DNA of 64,000 bases, from contig JARBTQ010000008.1 in the NCBI GenBank assembly GCA_029240075.1, positions 2,284-66,283 of the forward strand, written 5' to 3'. This document shows, piece by piece, positions 20,878 through 32,777 of the stretch. Source of the DNA: Chlamydiales bacterium. Lineage in GTDB: Bacteria; Chlamydiota; Chlamydiia; Chlamydiales; JARBTQ01. The number at the start of each line of letters is the position of its first letter. The stretch's first letter is position 1. The notes under the pieces were generated by a model. The model did no database searches, was not told where the DNA came from, and saw only the letters and a program-made list of their open reading frames with translations. Both the position numbers and the translations under genes were made by a program.

Positions 20878-22725
20878 ATGTCTTCTTATACTGTAAATAA
20901 ACGTCCATGTTCACCTCAATCTATCTCTTCATTGCAAAATGATACAAATTTTCTGCTCAATACCATAGAAAAAGAAGAAAATATTTATAAACGTATCCTC
21001 TTTAACCTTGAAGCAAAGGATTGTCTTGCCCTTTCGCGTGTTAATAAAGCTTGGCGTCAAATTATTAATGAGCATTTTGCAGCACTTAATAATAGTAATA
21101 GCCCAAAGATTCAAATACAAAATCCGGTGTATGGAAAAAAACTAGCAAGCCCTTCAATACCCATTTCAGAGGGTAAACCTAATACTGATTACGCTAAAGT
21201 GATCAATCGGCTAGTAGATAATCATAAAAATAACGCAAATACTCTGCGTTCTAGATTTCTAGAAGTAGCAATGAAATTTTTATCTGATTTGGCTTTAGGC
21301 TCTAAGCTATCTGAGCTACAACTTAATGCAGCTATACAAAACCTTGTGCAGGAGATGCTTGATTACAATCTTTTTGATACTGCCATTGAGTTAGCAATGA
21401 CTTTGAAAAATGAAGACTTTAGACAAGAAATCACAGATTTGATTGAACTGAATGTAAAACAGAAAACTAAACTTACCGTACAGATTGCAAATGATCCGAG
21501 TATACAACACGCTATTCCCTCCGTCTCTAGCTCTATCCCAAAACCAGACCAAAAAGTCGAAAATATTGTCCGTAAAAAATTGTTTCCTAGTTCTGATATT
21601 CCTAGCCAAGGAGTACAAGGTAATCTTTTTGACATATCATCAAGTTTTTTAGAGGATCCCTTTGGGAACAACAGCAGTAGCCCTGTTTTAATAGGTGAGA
21701 GAACAACATCTAATCCAAAAGGATTAGAGAATTATATTAATACTCAATATGGAAAAGAAAATGAAATTCCAAATTTAGAGCAAATTAACAAATTAGAGAA
21801 AAAAATCCGAGACAAAGACGCTCAGATTACAAAAGCTAACCAAGATTTTTATATTGCTGTAAAAGAAAAGGAATTTGAAAAGGCAAAGGGGTTAATAGAA
21901 AAATCTTCTCTTAATCCTAATTTAGCCATAGCTGTCGCAGCTTTATTTGATGATATCAATCTTTTAAATTGTATTACAGAACGTAATAAAGGTTTGACTG
22001 CGTCTGTAGAAGGTAATTTAGCTTTGTGTTTTGCAGCAGAAAACGGGTATGAGGAGTTTGCTAATGCTCTGATTTCAAACAATTATGCAAATCCTAACGA
22101 TGATTCACACGAAGCTCTTATATTGGCAATTGAAAATGAACATACACAAACAGCGTTATTTATCTTGCAAAGTAAGAATTTTAGTTTTGAGGGTGATGAA
22201 GATATAATTCATTCCACTGCGATTGAGTTCGGAAATACAGCAGTAGTTCAAGCATTGCTAAAACACGAAAGATTTTCAGCTGAAGATCATGTAGAACGAA
22301 TGTTTAATAAATCGATTGAATGTTCCTGCAGGGATGTAGCTGCATTAATTCTAAATTATAGAGATTTTTCTTTAGAAGAAATAGAAACTTTCCTCTTCAA
22401 AACAATAAAACTTCAATCTAAACCGATAGCTAAATTATTGCTAGATTACAAAAATTTTCCCCCAACAAAATTGCTCGAGTATTTTCAATACGCAGTCGAA
22501 AATAAAGCTCCCCCAATGTTGGAGTTATTAATCGATCATCCATCTTTTCCTCTGGACAAGTGCGATACTTTACTATCAAAAATACTCGAATCAAAAAATA
22601 TTGCTGCTTCAAAGGTAATTCTTCGTCATCAAAAATTCAGAAAAGAAGTTACCCTGTCGCTATATTTTGAAACTGTATTCAACCTTGGTGACCAAGACTT
22701 AATGAATATTATTTTGGAAAGCTAA
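20878..22725 (+). CDS. F-box-like protein with C-terminal ankyrin-like helical repeats
   Basis: 615 aa. Residues ~33-67, NIYKRILFNLEAKDCLALSRVNKAWRQIINEHF, fit the F-box consensus (I..L...dl..l..V.K.W..l). The C-terminal half has repeated ~33-aa helical units (NLALCFAAENGYEEFANALISN..., HEALILAIENEHTQTALFILQ...). Confidence 0.65.
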   Translation: MSSYTVNKRPCSPQSISSLQNDTNFLLNTIEKEENIYKRILFNLEAKDCLALSRVNKAWRQIINEHFAALNNSNSPKIQIQNPVYGKKLASPSIPISEGKPNTDYAKVINRLVDNHKNNANTLRSRFLEVAMKFLSDLALGSKLSELQLNAAIQNLVQEMLDYNLFDTAIELAMTLKNEDFRQEITDLIELNVKQKTKLTVQIANDPSIQHAIPSVSSSIPKPDQKVENIVRKKLFPSSDIPSQGVQGNLFDISSSFLEDPFGNNSSSPVLIGERTTSNPKGLENYINTQYGKENEIPNLEQINKLEKKIRDKDAQITKANQDFYIAVKEKEFEKAKGLIEKSSLNPNLAIAVAALFDDINLLNCITERNKGLTASVEGNLALCFAAENGYEEFANALISNNYANPNDDSHEALILAIENEHTQTALFILQSKNFSFEGDEDIIHSTAIEFGNTAVVQALLKHERFSAEDHVERMFNKSIECSCRDVAALILNYRDFSLEEIETFLFKTIKLQSKPIAKLLLDYKNFPPTKLLEYFQYAVENKAPPMLELLIDHPSFPLDKCDTLLSKILESKNIAASKVILRHQKFRKEVTLSLYFETVFNLGDQDLMNIILES

Positions 22726-22756
22726 AGTTCGAAAGAATATTTTTATCAAACTATTC

Positions 22757-22780
22757 AGCCTCCATCTCGGAGGCTTTTTT
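22757..22780 (+). terminator. Rho-independent terminator
   Basis: AGCCTCC-ATCTC-GGAGGCT followed by TTTTTT, 32 nt after the stop at 22725. Confidence 0.6.
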
Positions 22781-22804
22781 ATTTTAGGACATTTTTATAG
22801 AAAA

Positions 22805-30513: not shown

Positions 30514-31008
30514 ATGCCCCATTTCCCCTCTTCAGACTCCCCCTCTATACTTGTTTCTGTTGAAAATGAACAAAAAGATCTTACCCTTTCTAACATGTTA
30601 AAAGATCAAGTCAGCGCAATTGTCCAGCAGGTCTTATTATTAGAAGAAGTAGAATACCATGAGGTCTCGCTCTATTTTACTGACAAAGAGACTATTAGCC
30701 AATTACATGCTGATTTCTTTGATGATCCCACTCCCACAGACTGTATTTCATTTCCGATGGATGATTCTGATGAGCAGGGTTATCGTGTTTTAGGAGAAGT
30801 TTTTGTTTGCCCTGCTGTAGCTATTGAATATGCACAAAGCCATTCTATAGATCCTTACGAAGAGACAACTCTTTATGTTGTACATGGATTGCTCCACCTA
30901 CTAGGATATGATGATATAGAAGAAAGTGACCGCTTAGAGATGCGCGCTGCAGAACAAAAGCATATAGACCATTTAAAACAGTTGAATTTATTGCTAAAGT
31001 CTGCGTAA
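30514..31008 (+). CDS. ybeY: rRNA maturation endoribonuclease YbeY
   Basis: Zinc-binding motif HGLLHLLGYDD and upstream TDCISFPMD. The track ORF starts at 30436. Met27 (30514) gives a YbeY-typical length of about 164 aa. Confidence 0.88.
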   Translation: MPHFPSSDSPSILVSVENEQKDLTLSNMLKDQVSAIVQQVLLLEEVEYHEVSLYFTDKETISQLHADFFDDPTPTDCISFPMDDSDEQGYRVLGEVFVCPAVAIEYAQSHSIDPYEETTLYVVHGLLHLLGYDDIEESDRLEMRAAEQKHIDHLKQLNLLLKSA

Positions 31009-31139
31009 ATTTCGCCCTTATACTTTTACCAATTCTAGTCTTTTAAAATTGGACTTATAAATGAGGTCAAAAAGACCCCATTTTAATTTTATGCACTAAC
31101 AGCTATTTTGCGTTCATACGTCTATTAGATATTTGCTTA

Positions 31140-32777
31140 CTATTTAGAACGTAATGATAAAGTTTTTTTAAGGATCAAATTGCTTATCTCATAACTTGCT
31201 GTTTCTAAAATTTCATATAAAGAACAAAATCCTTTTTTCTTATAATCGAGACATTCAAACAAGCAGCTCTGAATATAGGTTTGATCTAACAGCACTTTTA
31301 GGACTTCCTTGTGCCCTAATTGGGCAGCTTCCACAAGCAATCTATTTTTATTCTGGAAAAAAAGATCTGTTGTTGGCGGACTATAACTTAAAATATAGTC
31401 TCCCTGTGCAACCTCTAAAATTTTCTTTAGTATTTTAGGTTGGTTATTTGTACAGGCTAGATAGGCTAGAGAACGCATGATTTCAAATTTTGAACTTGAA
31501 TCATATTTTGCTGCTAATAGTGTAACTTCTAGTAAAGAAATTAATTCTTCAAATTTTTCAATATCCCCTTTTATAACTAAACTATTAAATCTAGCTTCTA
31601 GCATCTTGTATAAATTTATTCTATCTCTATTATAGTTTTGAGGTATGGATTTTAGAGTTGCTTTGATTGCAGGGTCATCCAATAGATCCTTTATACGTTT
31701 TGAATCACCCGAATGAAAAGCTAGAGTTAAAGGATAGTACGGAACAACCCTAGTAGAATTATTGCTCCATTGAAATCCAGTAGTTGTATCAAATTTTAGC
31801 TTGTTAAGTAATTCTATATTTTCTAAATCCTGTGCAGAAGGTACTGTCTTTAATTTTTTAAGGATTAAATCGCTTATCTCATAACTTGCTGTGTCTAAAA
31901 CTTCATGTAAAGAATCAAACATTTTCTTCTTAGGGTCTAGGCATTGCAATAGACAATTTTGGATATAAGTTTGATCTAATAGTAATTCTATAATTTCCTT
32001 ATGCCCTAGTTGAGCAGCTTCCACAAATAACCTAATATGACTAGGAGGGCACAATTCCACAGAATCGTGGTTCGTTGGAGGAGTGTAAGTTAAAACATAT
32101 TCCCCGCTTGCAACTTTTAAAATTTCTTGCAACATTTCAGGCTGATTATTTCTACAGGCTAGATGAGTCAACGACTTCATGATTTTATAATAGGCTGCAT
32201 GGTTGTGCTCATTCGCTGCTGTTAGCGTAGGTTTTAGTAAAGGAATTAAATTTTTAAATGTTTCAATATCCTCTTCTATAACTAAACTATTAAATCTAGC
32301 TTCTAGCATATTACATAAGTTTTTCCTTCTGTCATTGGAGCCAAGGGGCAAAGAATCAAGAGCCTCCTTGATCTCAGGCTTATCCAAGACAGTTTTTATA
32401 AGCTTTGAGTTTTTTGAATGAAAGGCTTGGATTAAAAGATAGTAGGGAGGCATCTTATAATTAACATTTTGAATCCATTCAAATGTCGTTGTTGCACTAA
32501 AACCTTTTACACTCAGTAGTAAATCTACATTTCTTAAATTTCCTTGTGATGCATATTTAGCTAAGTCTAAAGCAGCTTGCTCCCCCTTGCTTGCTTTAAC
32601 AATATTACCTATTGCAAGTTGTGCTATTCTATTAAATAACTTGTTTACTTGTGCGTGCAAAGCTAAATCTCCAAGCTTCATTAAACTCATTATTTTTACT
32701 TGTATATCTTGTGGTAACTTTTCAAATTTAAAATATTCTGGAGCAAAGCTTTCAATTTTACTATTATTCACGTTCAT
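31140..32777 (-). CDS. F-box-like protein built from two ~230-aa tandem repeats
   Basis: 545 aa. N-terminal EKLPQDIQVKIMSLMKLGDLALHAQVNKLFNRIAQ fits the F-box consensus, including the LP start. Residues ~85-310 and ~321-540 are collinear paralogous halves. Confidence 0.7.
   Translation of the reverse strand: MNVNNSKIESFAPEYFKFEKLPQDIQVKIMSLMKLGDLALHAQVNKLFNRIAQLAIGNIVKASKGEQAALDLAKYASQGNLRNVDLLLSVKGFSATTTFEWIQNVNYKMPPYYLLIQAFHSKNSKLIKTVLDKPEIKEALDSLPLGSNDRRKNLCNMLEARFNSLVIEEDIETFKNLIPLLKPTLTAANEHNHAAYYKIMKSLTHLACRNNQPEMLQEILKVASGEYVLTYTPPTNHDSVELCPPSHIRLFVEAAQLGHKEIIELLLDQTYIQNCLLQCLDPKKKMFDSLHEVLDTASYEISDLILKKLKTVPSAQDLENIELLNKLKFDTTTGFQWSNNSTRVVPYYPLTLAFHSGDSKRIKDLLDDPAIKATLKSIPQNYNRDRINLYKMLEARFNSLVIKGDIEKFEELISLLEVTLLAAKYDSSSKFEIMRSLAYLACTNNQPKILKKILEVAQGDYILSYSPPTTDLFFQNKNRLLVEAAQLGHKEVLKVLLDQTYIQSCLFECLDYKKKGFCSLYEILETASYEISNLILKKTLSLRSK
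31158..32525 (-). repeat. intragenic tandem duplication, period about 690-705 bp
   Basis: It is visible at DNA level: TTTTTAAGGATCAAATTGCTTATCTCATAACTTGCTGTTTCTAAAATTTCAT near 31165 versus TTTTTAAGGATTAAATCGCTTATCTCATAACTTGCTGTGTCTAAAACTTCAT near 31855. At protein level: EARFNSLVI, VEAAQLGHKE, LLDQTYIQ.CL and TASYEIS.LILKK occur in both halves. Confidence 0.85.

Follow-up and report, generated by a model that had tools for sequence, protein, structure and literature searches.

Very divergent F-box/ankyrin-repeat candidate effectors encoded by a deep-branching member of the Chlamydiales

Three genes on one contig of a Chlamydiales metagenome-assembled genome (MAG) raise the question of whether their products, here P1, P2 and P3, are adaptors that hijack the ubiquitin ligases of a protist host. 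A first-pass annotation of the DNA proposed that all three begin with an F-box and act in SCF (Skp1-Cullin-F-box) complexes; an SCF-adaptor role is the natural interpretation because environmental chlamydiae are known for hundreds of F-box effector candidates (PMC4209131). The reported F-box proteins of chlamydiae number 376, and those members that were tested have functional type III secretion signals (Domman 2014, PMC4209131).

Genomic context

The window, the whole stretch of DNA that was analysed (64,000 nucleotides), derives from a deep-branching Chlamydiales lineage; GyrB of the MAG is at most 68% identical to that of any reference species, and a scan of the window ORFs reveals a CT_584-like gene. 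The ORF list and a register check place the three ORFs and their N-terminal segments where the first-pass annotation had put them (Table 1). P2 carries the automated name 'tankyrase-2' because of its ankyrin (ANK) repeats. No additional F-box or other eukaryote-like proteins were found in the window, and Rfam and tRNA scans of it gave nothing bearing on the F-box/ANK finding.

Because F-box and ANK domains are typical of eukaryotes and the DNA comes from a metagenome assembly, the genes could reflect contamination with host DNA or an assembly chimera. However, bacterial genes border each of the three on this contig, among them gyrA/gyrB, housekeeping genes (MqnC, YbeY, a HemN-like gene and a methyltransferase), histidine kinases and tRNAs; the three ORFs are intron-less and densely packed, and their GC3 resembles that of neighbouring genes. 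Homologues of P1 aa 1–340 were not found in a word-index search (E≤1e-3, 5.8e9 clustered proteins), a search of the same kind, scope and threshold with full-length P3 returned only P3 itself, and P2 aa 1–540 likewise matched only itself in a word-index search and in an exhaustive HMMER search of 1.84e9 representatives, such that none of these queries has a detected eukaryotic homologue. Contamination is rejected on gene context, its probability being negligible, and the genes are of chlamydial origin. Recent horizontal acquisition also lacks compositional support, as GC3 of all three is within ~1 SD of the window mean.

Table 1. Coordinates of the three genes and their predicted features within the window. 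Scores are Pfam bit scores.
Feature	Coordinates	Strand	Residues	Details
P1 gene	20878..22725	+	615 aa	MDF2577174.1 'hypothetical protein'; exact match to MAG protein
P1 F-box core	20983..21069	+	aa 36–64	IYKRILFNLEAKDCLALSRVNKAWRQIIN; PF00646 profile positions 8–36 of 43
P1 ankyrin-repeat region	21934..22539	+	aa 353–554	Ank_2, Ank, Ank_3 matches
P2 gene	25954..28158	+	734 aa	MDF2577177.1 'tankyrase-2'
P2 candidate degenerate F-box core	26074..26133	+	aa 41–60	RYLDPIDIQALQCCNKHARY; sub-threshold PF00646 match
P2 ankyrin repeats	27619..27843	+	aa 556–630	Ank 37.2, Ank_4 38.3, Ank_5 31.4
P3 gene	31140..32777	-	545 aa	MDF2577183.1 'hypothetical protein'
P3 F-box	32622..32726	-	aa 18–52	FEKLPQDIQVKIMSLMKLGDLALHAQVNKLFNRIA; PF00646 profile positions 2–35 of 43
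P3 repeat module 1	31854..32540	-	aa 80–308	Ank_3 22.7, Ank 21.3
P3 repeat module 2	31164..31829	-	aa 317–538	Ank_3 21.3, Ank_2 21.3

Domain organization of the three proteins

Among the N-termini of 43 ORFs in the window, only those of P1 and P3 are assigned an F-box by Pfam. Against PF00646, whose curated gathering cut-off is 20.5 bits, P1 scores 21.0 bits as a full-length protein, rising to 25.6 bits (E=1.1e-5) when the segment is scanned alone. P3 falls below the cut-off at full length (18.6 bits) and reaches 21.0 bits when isolated, with corresponding values of 17.4 and 21.6 bits for PF12937 (F-box-like). The proposal that three N-termini fit the F-box consensus thus stands for P1 and P3, approximately at the Pfam threshold, but not for P2, a 60-aa segment of which scores just 13.2 bits. 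The scores are marginal overall, with full-length P3 under the cut-off and P2 far under it. The canonical LP dipeptide is present in P3 alone (L21-P22), together with all core hydrophobic F-box positions; the aligned site is K-E in P1, which has the best F-box score and retains the V-x-K-x-W motif of helix 3, and I-D in P2.

All three proteins contain Pfam ANK repeats, contrary to the earlier proposal that their C-terminal ends differ in kind; these regions are unrelated in sequence but belong to the same class. In P1 the F-box is followed by a spacer of ~280 aa with no detectable domain and then by the repeats (Ank_2 54.6 bits in three stretches, Ank 31.2 bits and Ank_3 23.7 bits in the C-terminal piece), which probably extend to the C-terminus. 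P2 has a doubtful F-box-like N-terminus, an orphan helical region of ~490 aa, the ANK repeats and an acidic tail. In P3 the F-box precedes two tandem ANK-containing modules of ~225 aa, which are 55% identical over 229 aa (E=2e-83) and correspond to DNA repeats with a period of ~700 nt; the duplication noticed at first pass is therefore real, but each copy bears ANK matches (in module 1 the Ank_3 and Ank scores are both roughly at cut-off) and the module is hence not novel.

P1, P2 and P3 show neither a Sec signal nor a transmembrane segment nor a CaaX motif; their C-termini read ...NIILES, ...VSNQPL and ...LSLRSK. Serine, threonine, proline, asparagine and glutamine make up 60% of the first 25 residues of P1, a hint from composition at a possible type III secretion signal.

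Relationships among the N-terminal segments

F-box proteins account for six of the 10 PDB matches of a profile built from the three segments, and for five of eight with a profile of P1 and P3 only; each alignment falls on the F-box of the matched protein. The F-box proteins matched are FBXW12/19/21/24, C85627 and FBXW7. Single-sequence phmmer searches of PDB with each N-terminus gave no F-box match. Two-sequence HMMs never recovered the third segment in leave-one-out comparisons, and all-against-all BLASTP of P1, P2 and P3 found no significant similarity. Mutual similarity of the three segments alone is not significant, and at the sequence level the proteins are not recognisable as paralogues of each other.

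Single-sequence AlphaFold2 models have a pLDDT of 38 for P2 aa 1–200 and 57 for full-length P3; helices are predicted in the F-box region, where pLDDT is below 50. Foldseek comparison of the P3 model with PDB gives generic helical-repeat matches only (TM 0.13–0.23). At pLDDT values below 50 and with generic matches, neither the models nor the Foldseek hits were accepted as evidence of fold.

Interpretation of the F-box-like segments

The status of P2 is the most contentious, and there is a little under an even chance that P2, unlike the other two, is no F-box protein but simply an ANK protein whose orphan helical N-terminus resembles an F-box by chance or through pattern-matching by eye. Neither full-length P2 nor its N-terminal 100 aa has a Pfam F-box match at E≤1, and the 60-aa segment aligns to just 20 of the 43 profile positions (14–33; E=0.086), with the matched core (aa 41–60) inside the stretch drawn more widely at first pass (26023–26148). 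P2 also lacks LP and, behind V-x-K, the conserved W/F. An hhalign comparison of P2 with P1 and P3 gives 1.2% probability, out of register and approximately equal to a shuffled control, the HMM of P1 and P3 does not place P2 among its top matches, and the register of the P2 segment is inconsistent between MAFFT alignments. About 25 of 100 composition-matched shuffles of the segment match some other Pfam family at E≤0.1, although none matches the F-box, which is the sole family matched by the segment itself, with a per-model P-value of ~3.5e-6 (E=0.086 divided by 24,736 models). The match is also at the expected site, N-terminal to the ANK repeats and less than 5 kb from two supported F-box/ANK genes, and adding P2 to the profile does not impair PDB F-box retrieval but gains FBXW7. 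The P2 F-box is best regarded as doubtful: it is unproven, sub-threshold and not backed by any of the mutual-similarity tests.

A broader objection is that the F-box-like segments have all decayed to relics and no longer bind Skp1, and that the proteins are pure ANK binders, such as inhibitors or scaffolds, forming no SCF ligase. The marginal scores, the fast evolution and the failure of the searches to find homologues would suit such a history, as would the lack of LP in P1 and P2, since an LP-to-AA substitution abolishes AnkB-Skp1 binding (PMC2790608). P3, however, keeps LP and every core hydrophobic position, and P1 combines the top score with an intact helix 3 motif. Natural F-boxes also tolerate variation at LP, and the module persists at the very start of intact ORFs of 545–734 aa in an AT-rich genome. 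Wholesale decay is considered unlikely.

The preferred reading, to which we assign a probability of roughly 0.6, is that P1 and P3 are eukaryote-like F-box/ANK proteins, encoded by an environmental chlamydia with an obligate intracellular life, and that P2 is an ANK protein with a possibly decayed F-box at its N-terminus. The proposal of SCF adaptors is favoured by the F-boxes of P1 and P3 and by the PDB profile matches, but is weakened by the sub-threshold score of P2, the restriction of LP to P3, and C-terminal ends that are all ANK. Under the preferred reading the proteins would reach the cytosol of a protist host, with the chlamydial type III secretion system as the presumed exporter. There the N-terminal F-box would bind host Skp1 and thereby bring the protein into a host SCF E3 ligase, and the ankyrin repeats would capture host targets to be ubiquitinated, as in Legionella AnkB. 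The three genes are consistent with the fast birth-and-death evolution reported for F-box effectors of chlamydiae.

A more speculative possibility, and an improbable one, is that the trio is the remnant of an old local F-box/ANK array that diverged past recognition in a deep unsampled lineage, with P1 (lacking LP) and the minimal P2 (lacking LP and W) still engaging Skp1 non-canonically, and the orphan spacers of 280–490 aa serving as new host-targeting domains. If so, functional F-boxes of bacteria would have wider sequence limits, and a chlamydial F-box/ANK class would stand alongside the LRR and TPR classes.

On the preferred reading the proteins are new and very divergent members of an already well-known kind, the F-box plus ANK effector candidates. 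F-box effectors are a standard route of amoeba-associated bacteria to host ubiquitination, more of them are to be expected in a chlamydial MAG, and the three genes open no new question. Their value is modest and lies in the AnkB-type pairing of F-box with ANK, as opposed to the LRR or TPR of described chlamydial families, in the lack of detectable homologues, and in their origin from a lineage of which no close relative has been sequenced; they thus illustrate the speed of effector gene turnover, with F-boxes near the limit of detection.

Comparison with known systems

The closest sequence matches to the module in PDB are the mouse FBXW12 family and FBXW7, including Q/R-V-N-K at the start of helix 3. 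These proteins pair the F-box with WD40 and not ANK, and the similarity is limited to ~25 residues (E 0.01–0.4).

An ANK and F-box-type Skp1-binding combination in an intracellular parasite is likewise seen in the ANK/PRANC proteins of poxviruses, Orientia and Wolbachia. The PRANC (F-box-like) domain is C-terminal in those proteins, whereas the order is reversed here, with the module at aa 18–64, upstream of ANK as in eukaryotic F-box proteins; no Pfam PRANC match is found in P1, P2 or P3.

NEX1a and NEX2 of Neochlamydia and other Parachlamydiaceae F-box families combine the F-box with LRR or TPR (PMC4209131) and not with ANK as here. Members of these large families are 45–64% identical among themselves, whereas P1, P2 and P3 are mutually unrecognisable and the searches recovered no homologues, including none paralogous to NEX1a/NEX2 (≥30% identity across ≥60% of length; E≤1e-3, 5.8e9 clustered proteins). 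The organism also differs from those carrying the described families in being a deep lineage, as judged from GyrB.

Among the closest known systems is AnkB of Legionella pneumophila (LegAU13/Lpg2144), an effector with an F-box and ANK repeats that is translocated by Dot/Icm and binds Skp1, the LP dipeptide being essential for this binding (PMC2790608). The proteins here are 3–4 times longer with their long spacers, have LP only in P3, lack the C-terminal CaaX farnesylation motif, and would use type III and not type IV secretion. AnkB is absent from the PDB matches at E≤10, and the NCBIfam search gave a negligible match to AnkY and none to an AnkB model. AnkB, P1 and P3 nevertheless share the order of parts, with the F-box at the N-terminus and ANK behind it, and in P2 the ANK part is clear and the F-box doubtful. 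AnkB comes from an amoeba-associated intracellular bacterium, as the proteins here presumably do, and by analogy the expected mechanism would be alike, with the F-box binding Skp1 and the ANK repeats binding the substrate (PMC2790608).

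Gene locations and genomic context

The window contains three intact open reading frames (ORFs), P1, P2 and P3, each with a proposed N-terminal F-box-like module, and both the ORFs and their N-terminal peptides lie where the first-pass annotation placed them (see table). All three are identical to proteins of one Chlamydiales metagenome-assembled genome (MAG), on a contig of ~99.7 kb; the annotation of P1 and P3 is 'hypothetical protein', and P2 carries the automatic name 'tankyrase-2' because of its ankyrin repeats (ANK). The genes are non-adjacent and interspersed with a class-I methyltransferase gene, a 550-aa orphan ORF, the MqnC and YbeY genes, and a HemN-like radical-SAM gene. 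No GTDB species representative among the 80 loci listed, from which the source MAG is absent, exceeds 68% identity to the GyrB of the window, and the best matches are scattered across the Parachlamydiaceae, Simkaniaceae and Rhabdochlamydiaceae, which points to a deep, poorly sampled environmental chlamydia. Judged by GyrB, the MAG is a deep chlamydial lineage without a close sequenced relative.

Coordinates of the three F-box candidate genes and of other features in the window
Feature	Coordinates	Strand	Length	Remarks
P1 gene	20878-22725	+	615 aa	intact
P1 helical spacer, DUF2192 match	21169-21441	+		aa 98-188
P2 gene	25954-28158	+	734 aa	intact
P2 C-terminal tail, acidic tandem mini-repeat	27985-28071	+	14-aa unit
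P3 gene	31140-32777	-	545 aa	intact
P3 intragenic tandem duplication	31164-32540	-	~225-aa module	ANK-containing
gyrB	5703-8189	-
Tandem tRNA-Met (CAT) genes	8703-8977	-	275 nt	three genes
ORF between P1 and P2	23929-25581	+	550 aa	no Pfam or NCBIfam match
mqnC-ybeY gap	29507-30435		~930 nt	no ORF of at least 80 aa, no Rfam or tRNA match
Small ORF in gap	29576-29773	-	65 aa
Small ORF in gap	30219-30377	+	52 aa	very basic
ORF overlapping annotated start of HemN-like gene	33141-33623	+	160 aa	TTG start
HemN-like gene	33499-34770	+
Two GAF-PAS-PAS histidine kinases with adjoining response-regulator/Hpt protein	34797-38635 and 39021-40619	-	625 aa (each kinase)	kinases paralogous and in tandem
Orphan candidate	42049-43419	+	456 aa	no Pfam match
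VWA/AAA_5 cluster	50039-57232

With a GC of 0.323-0.333 against a window mean of 0.368±0.029, the P1, P2 and P3 genes are slightly richer in AT than the genes around them, chiefly at codon positions 1 and 2. Their GC3 (0.240-0.257) is within ~1 SD of the mean (0.279±0.030), and there is therefore no compositional sign of recent transfer. Eukaryotic contamination as the source of the genes is ruled out by gene context.

F-box-like N-termini

The proposal that all three N-termini resemble the F-box consensus is partly confirmed by profile comparisons, which predict solid-to-borderline F-boxes in P1 and P3 and leave P2 as a doubtful candidate. Against the Pfam F-box profile (PF00646; curated cut-off 20.5 bits), P1 scores 21.0 bits at full length and 25.6 bits (E=1.1e-5) as an isolated ~60-aa segment, which also matches F-box-like (PF12937) at 23.2 bits. 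P3 scores 18.6 bits at full length and 21.0 bits (E=3.1e-4) as an isolated ~60-aa segment, with F-box-like scores of 17.4 and 21.6 bits respectively. The PF00646 matches span profile positions 8-36 of 43 in P1 and 2-35 in P3. Full-length P2 has no match to PF00646 at E≤1, and its isolated ~60-aa segment matches at 13.2 bits (E=0.086; positions 14-33 of 43), with PF00646 the sole family reported. When this segment is shuffled with its composition preserved, ~25 of 100 shuffles match another Pfam family at E≤0.1, so a weak match as such means little; none of the 100 matches F-box, and an F-box-specific match is rare among shuffles. Scanning the N-terminal 100 aa of 43 window ORFs yields two matches to F-box or F-box-like at E≤1, namely P1 and P3 (best E=3.1e-5), and none for P2.

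An HMM built from the three N-terminal segments matches ten PDB sequences at E≤10, six of which are F-box proteins (C85627, FBXW19, FBXW12, FBXW24, FBXW21 and FBXW7; best E=0.0096), and in all six the alignment falls exactly on the protein's own F-box. With an HMM from P1 and P3 only, F-box proteins are five of eight matches. Five PDB F-box matches are close paralogues of one another and thus provide fewer independent confirmations than the count suggests. The Leu-Pro (LP) dipeptide at the start of F-box helix 1 is present in P3 only (L21-P22), the aligned position being K-E in P1 and I-D in P2; AnkB, a Legionella F-box and ANK effector, no longer binds Skp1 and loses its function when LP is replaced by AA (PMC2790608).

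A module common to P1, P2 and P3 is not demonstrable from their sequences. HMMs of any two segments do not find the third above background (143 six-frame ORFs of the window), all-against-all BLASTP of the three returns nothing below E=0.5, and hhalign places P2 against P1 and P3 in the wrong register at 1.2% probability, about equal to the shuffled control. The MAFFT register of P2 shifts with the choice of flanks. A gapless by-eye alignment gives the pattern I-x3-I-x7-D-x6-[VC]-N-K, picked post hoc, in the F-box core register. Given the lack of mutual similarity and the post hoc pattern, the shared-module claim reduces to each N-terminus resembling the F-box consensus.

Homologue searches return only the query itself for full-length P3 and for P2 aa 1-540 (the latter also by exhaustive HMMER against 1.84 billion representatives), and nothing besides self at E≤1e-3 for P1 aa 1-340; profiles, phylogeny and good structure models are therefore out of reach. 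AF2 models made without an alignment have a pLDDT of 38 for P2 aa 1-200 and 57 for full-length P3 (<50 in the F-box region), and Foldseek finds generic helical repeats only (TM≤0.23).

C-terminal regions and architecture

The first-pass contrast among ANK-like helical repeats, canonical ANK and a novel ~230-aa module gives way to Pfam ANK matches in all three proteins. P1 has bona fide ANK (Ank_2, 54.6 bits, three stretches), P2 matches Ank (37.2 bits) and Ank_4 (38.3 bits), and both P3 modules match at about the cut-offs (Ank_3 22.7 and Ank 21.3 bits in module 1; Ank_3 and Ank_2 each 21.3 bits in module 2). The duplication within P3 is real (aa 80-308 vs aa 317-538; 55% identity, E=2e-83), although with ANK in each copy the module is not novel. 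At the DNA level it appears as repeats with a ~700-nt period and 72-83% identity in the best stretches, which suggests that the putative substrate-binding part expanded fairly recently.

The presence of ANK in all three thus suggests a common architecture of F-box, spacer and ANK, in which the P2 F-box is a candidate. No domain is found in the spacers of P1 (aa 66-345) and P2 (aa 66-540), and no Sec signal, transmembrane segment or CaaX box in any of the three. An archaeal DUF2192 match in the P1 spacer (22.0 bits vs a cut-off of 21; 18.7 bits isolated) is probably spurious. The P2 mini-repeat reads DTLTVSLDDREDQL, then D, then DTLTVPSDDQEDQL.

Other features of the window

The 90%-identity cluster of the 550-aa ORF holds two sequences only, of 550 and 529 aa, both encoded on this contig, and the ORF may be another lineage-specific effector candidate. 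The 160-aa ORF includes a coiled-coil-like region, and its tail is extremely acidic; the first ~45 codons of the HemN-like gene are M/K-rich and are probably not translated as called. The histidine kinases share 59% identity and adjoin a response-regulator/Hpt protein. The 456-aa ORF, a candidate further orphan, has a GC3 of 0.214, among the lowest in the window. The VWA/AAA_5 cluster comprises two leftwards VWA-domain proteins, an AAA_5 (MoxR-like) ATPase, a protein with a weak DUF5682 match, and a 704-aa protein that lacks a Pfam match and has a signal-like sequence at its N-terminus.

Proposed role and comparison with known systems

If AnkB (PMC2790608) and the F-box families of chlamydiae are a guide, the proteins would most likely be exported into the host cytosol, where the F-box could dock onto host Skp1 and the ANK would bring host proteins to the SCF ligase. 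Functional type III secretion signals are present in those chlamydial family members that have been tested (PMC4209131). Such a role is reasonably likely for P3, with its canonical LP, and plausible for P1, whose score is the highest of the three but which lacks LP. The earlier interpretation as SCF-hijacking adaptors with different substrate-recognition ends is supported in part, by the F-boxes of P1 and P3, but P2 is doubtful and the C-terminal ends are all ANK.

In the Chlamydiae, 376 F-box proteins have been reported, undergoing rapid birth-and-death evolution and often lying a few genes apart, with LRR or TPR repeats as the usual partner (Domman et al. 2014, PMC4209131). AnkB has the same F-box and ANK design as P1 and P3, and none of the three proteins is a sequence homologue of AnkB or of the Neochlamydia F-box families NEX1a and NEX2. 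On these comparisons, the P1, P2 and P3 genes are new, extremely divergent putative representatives of an already known kind, the F-box of P2 being doubtful.
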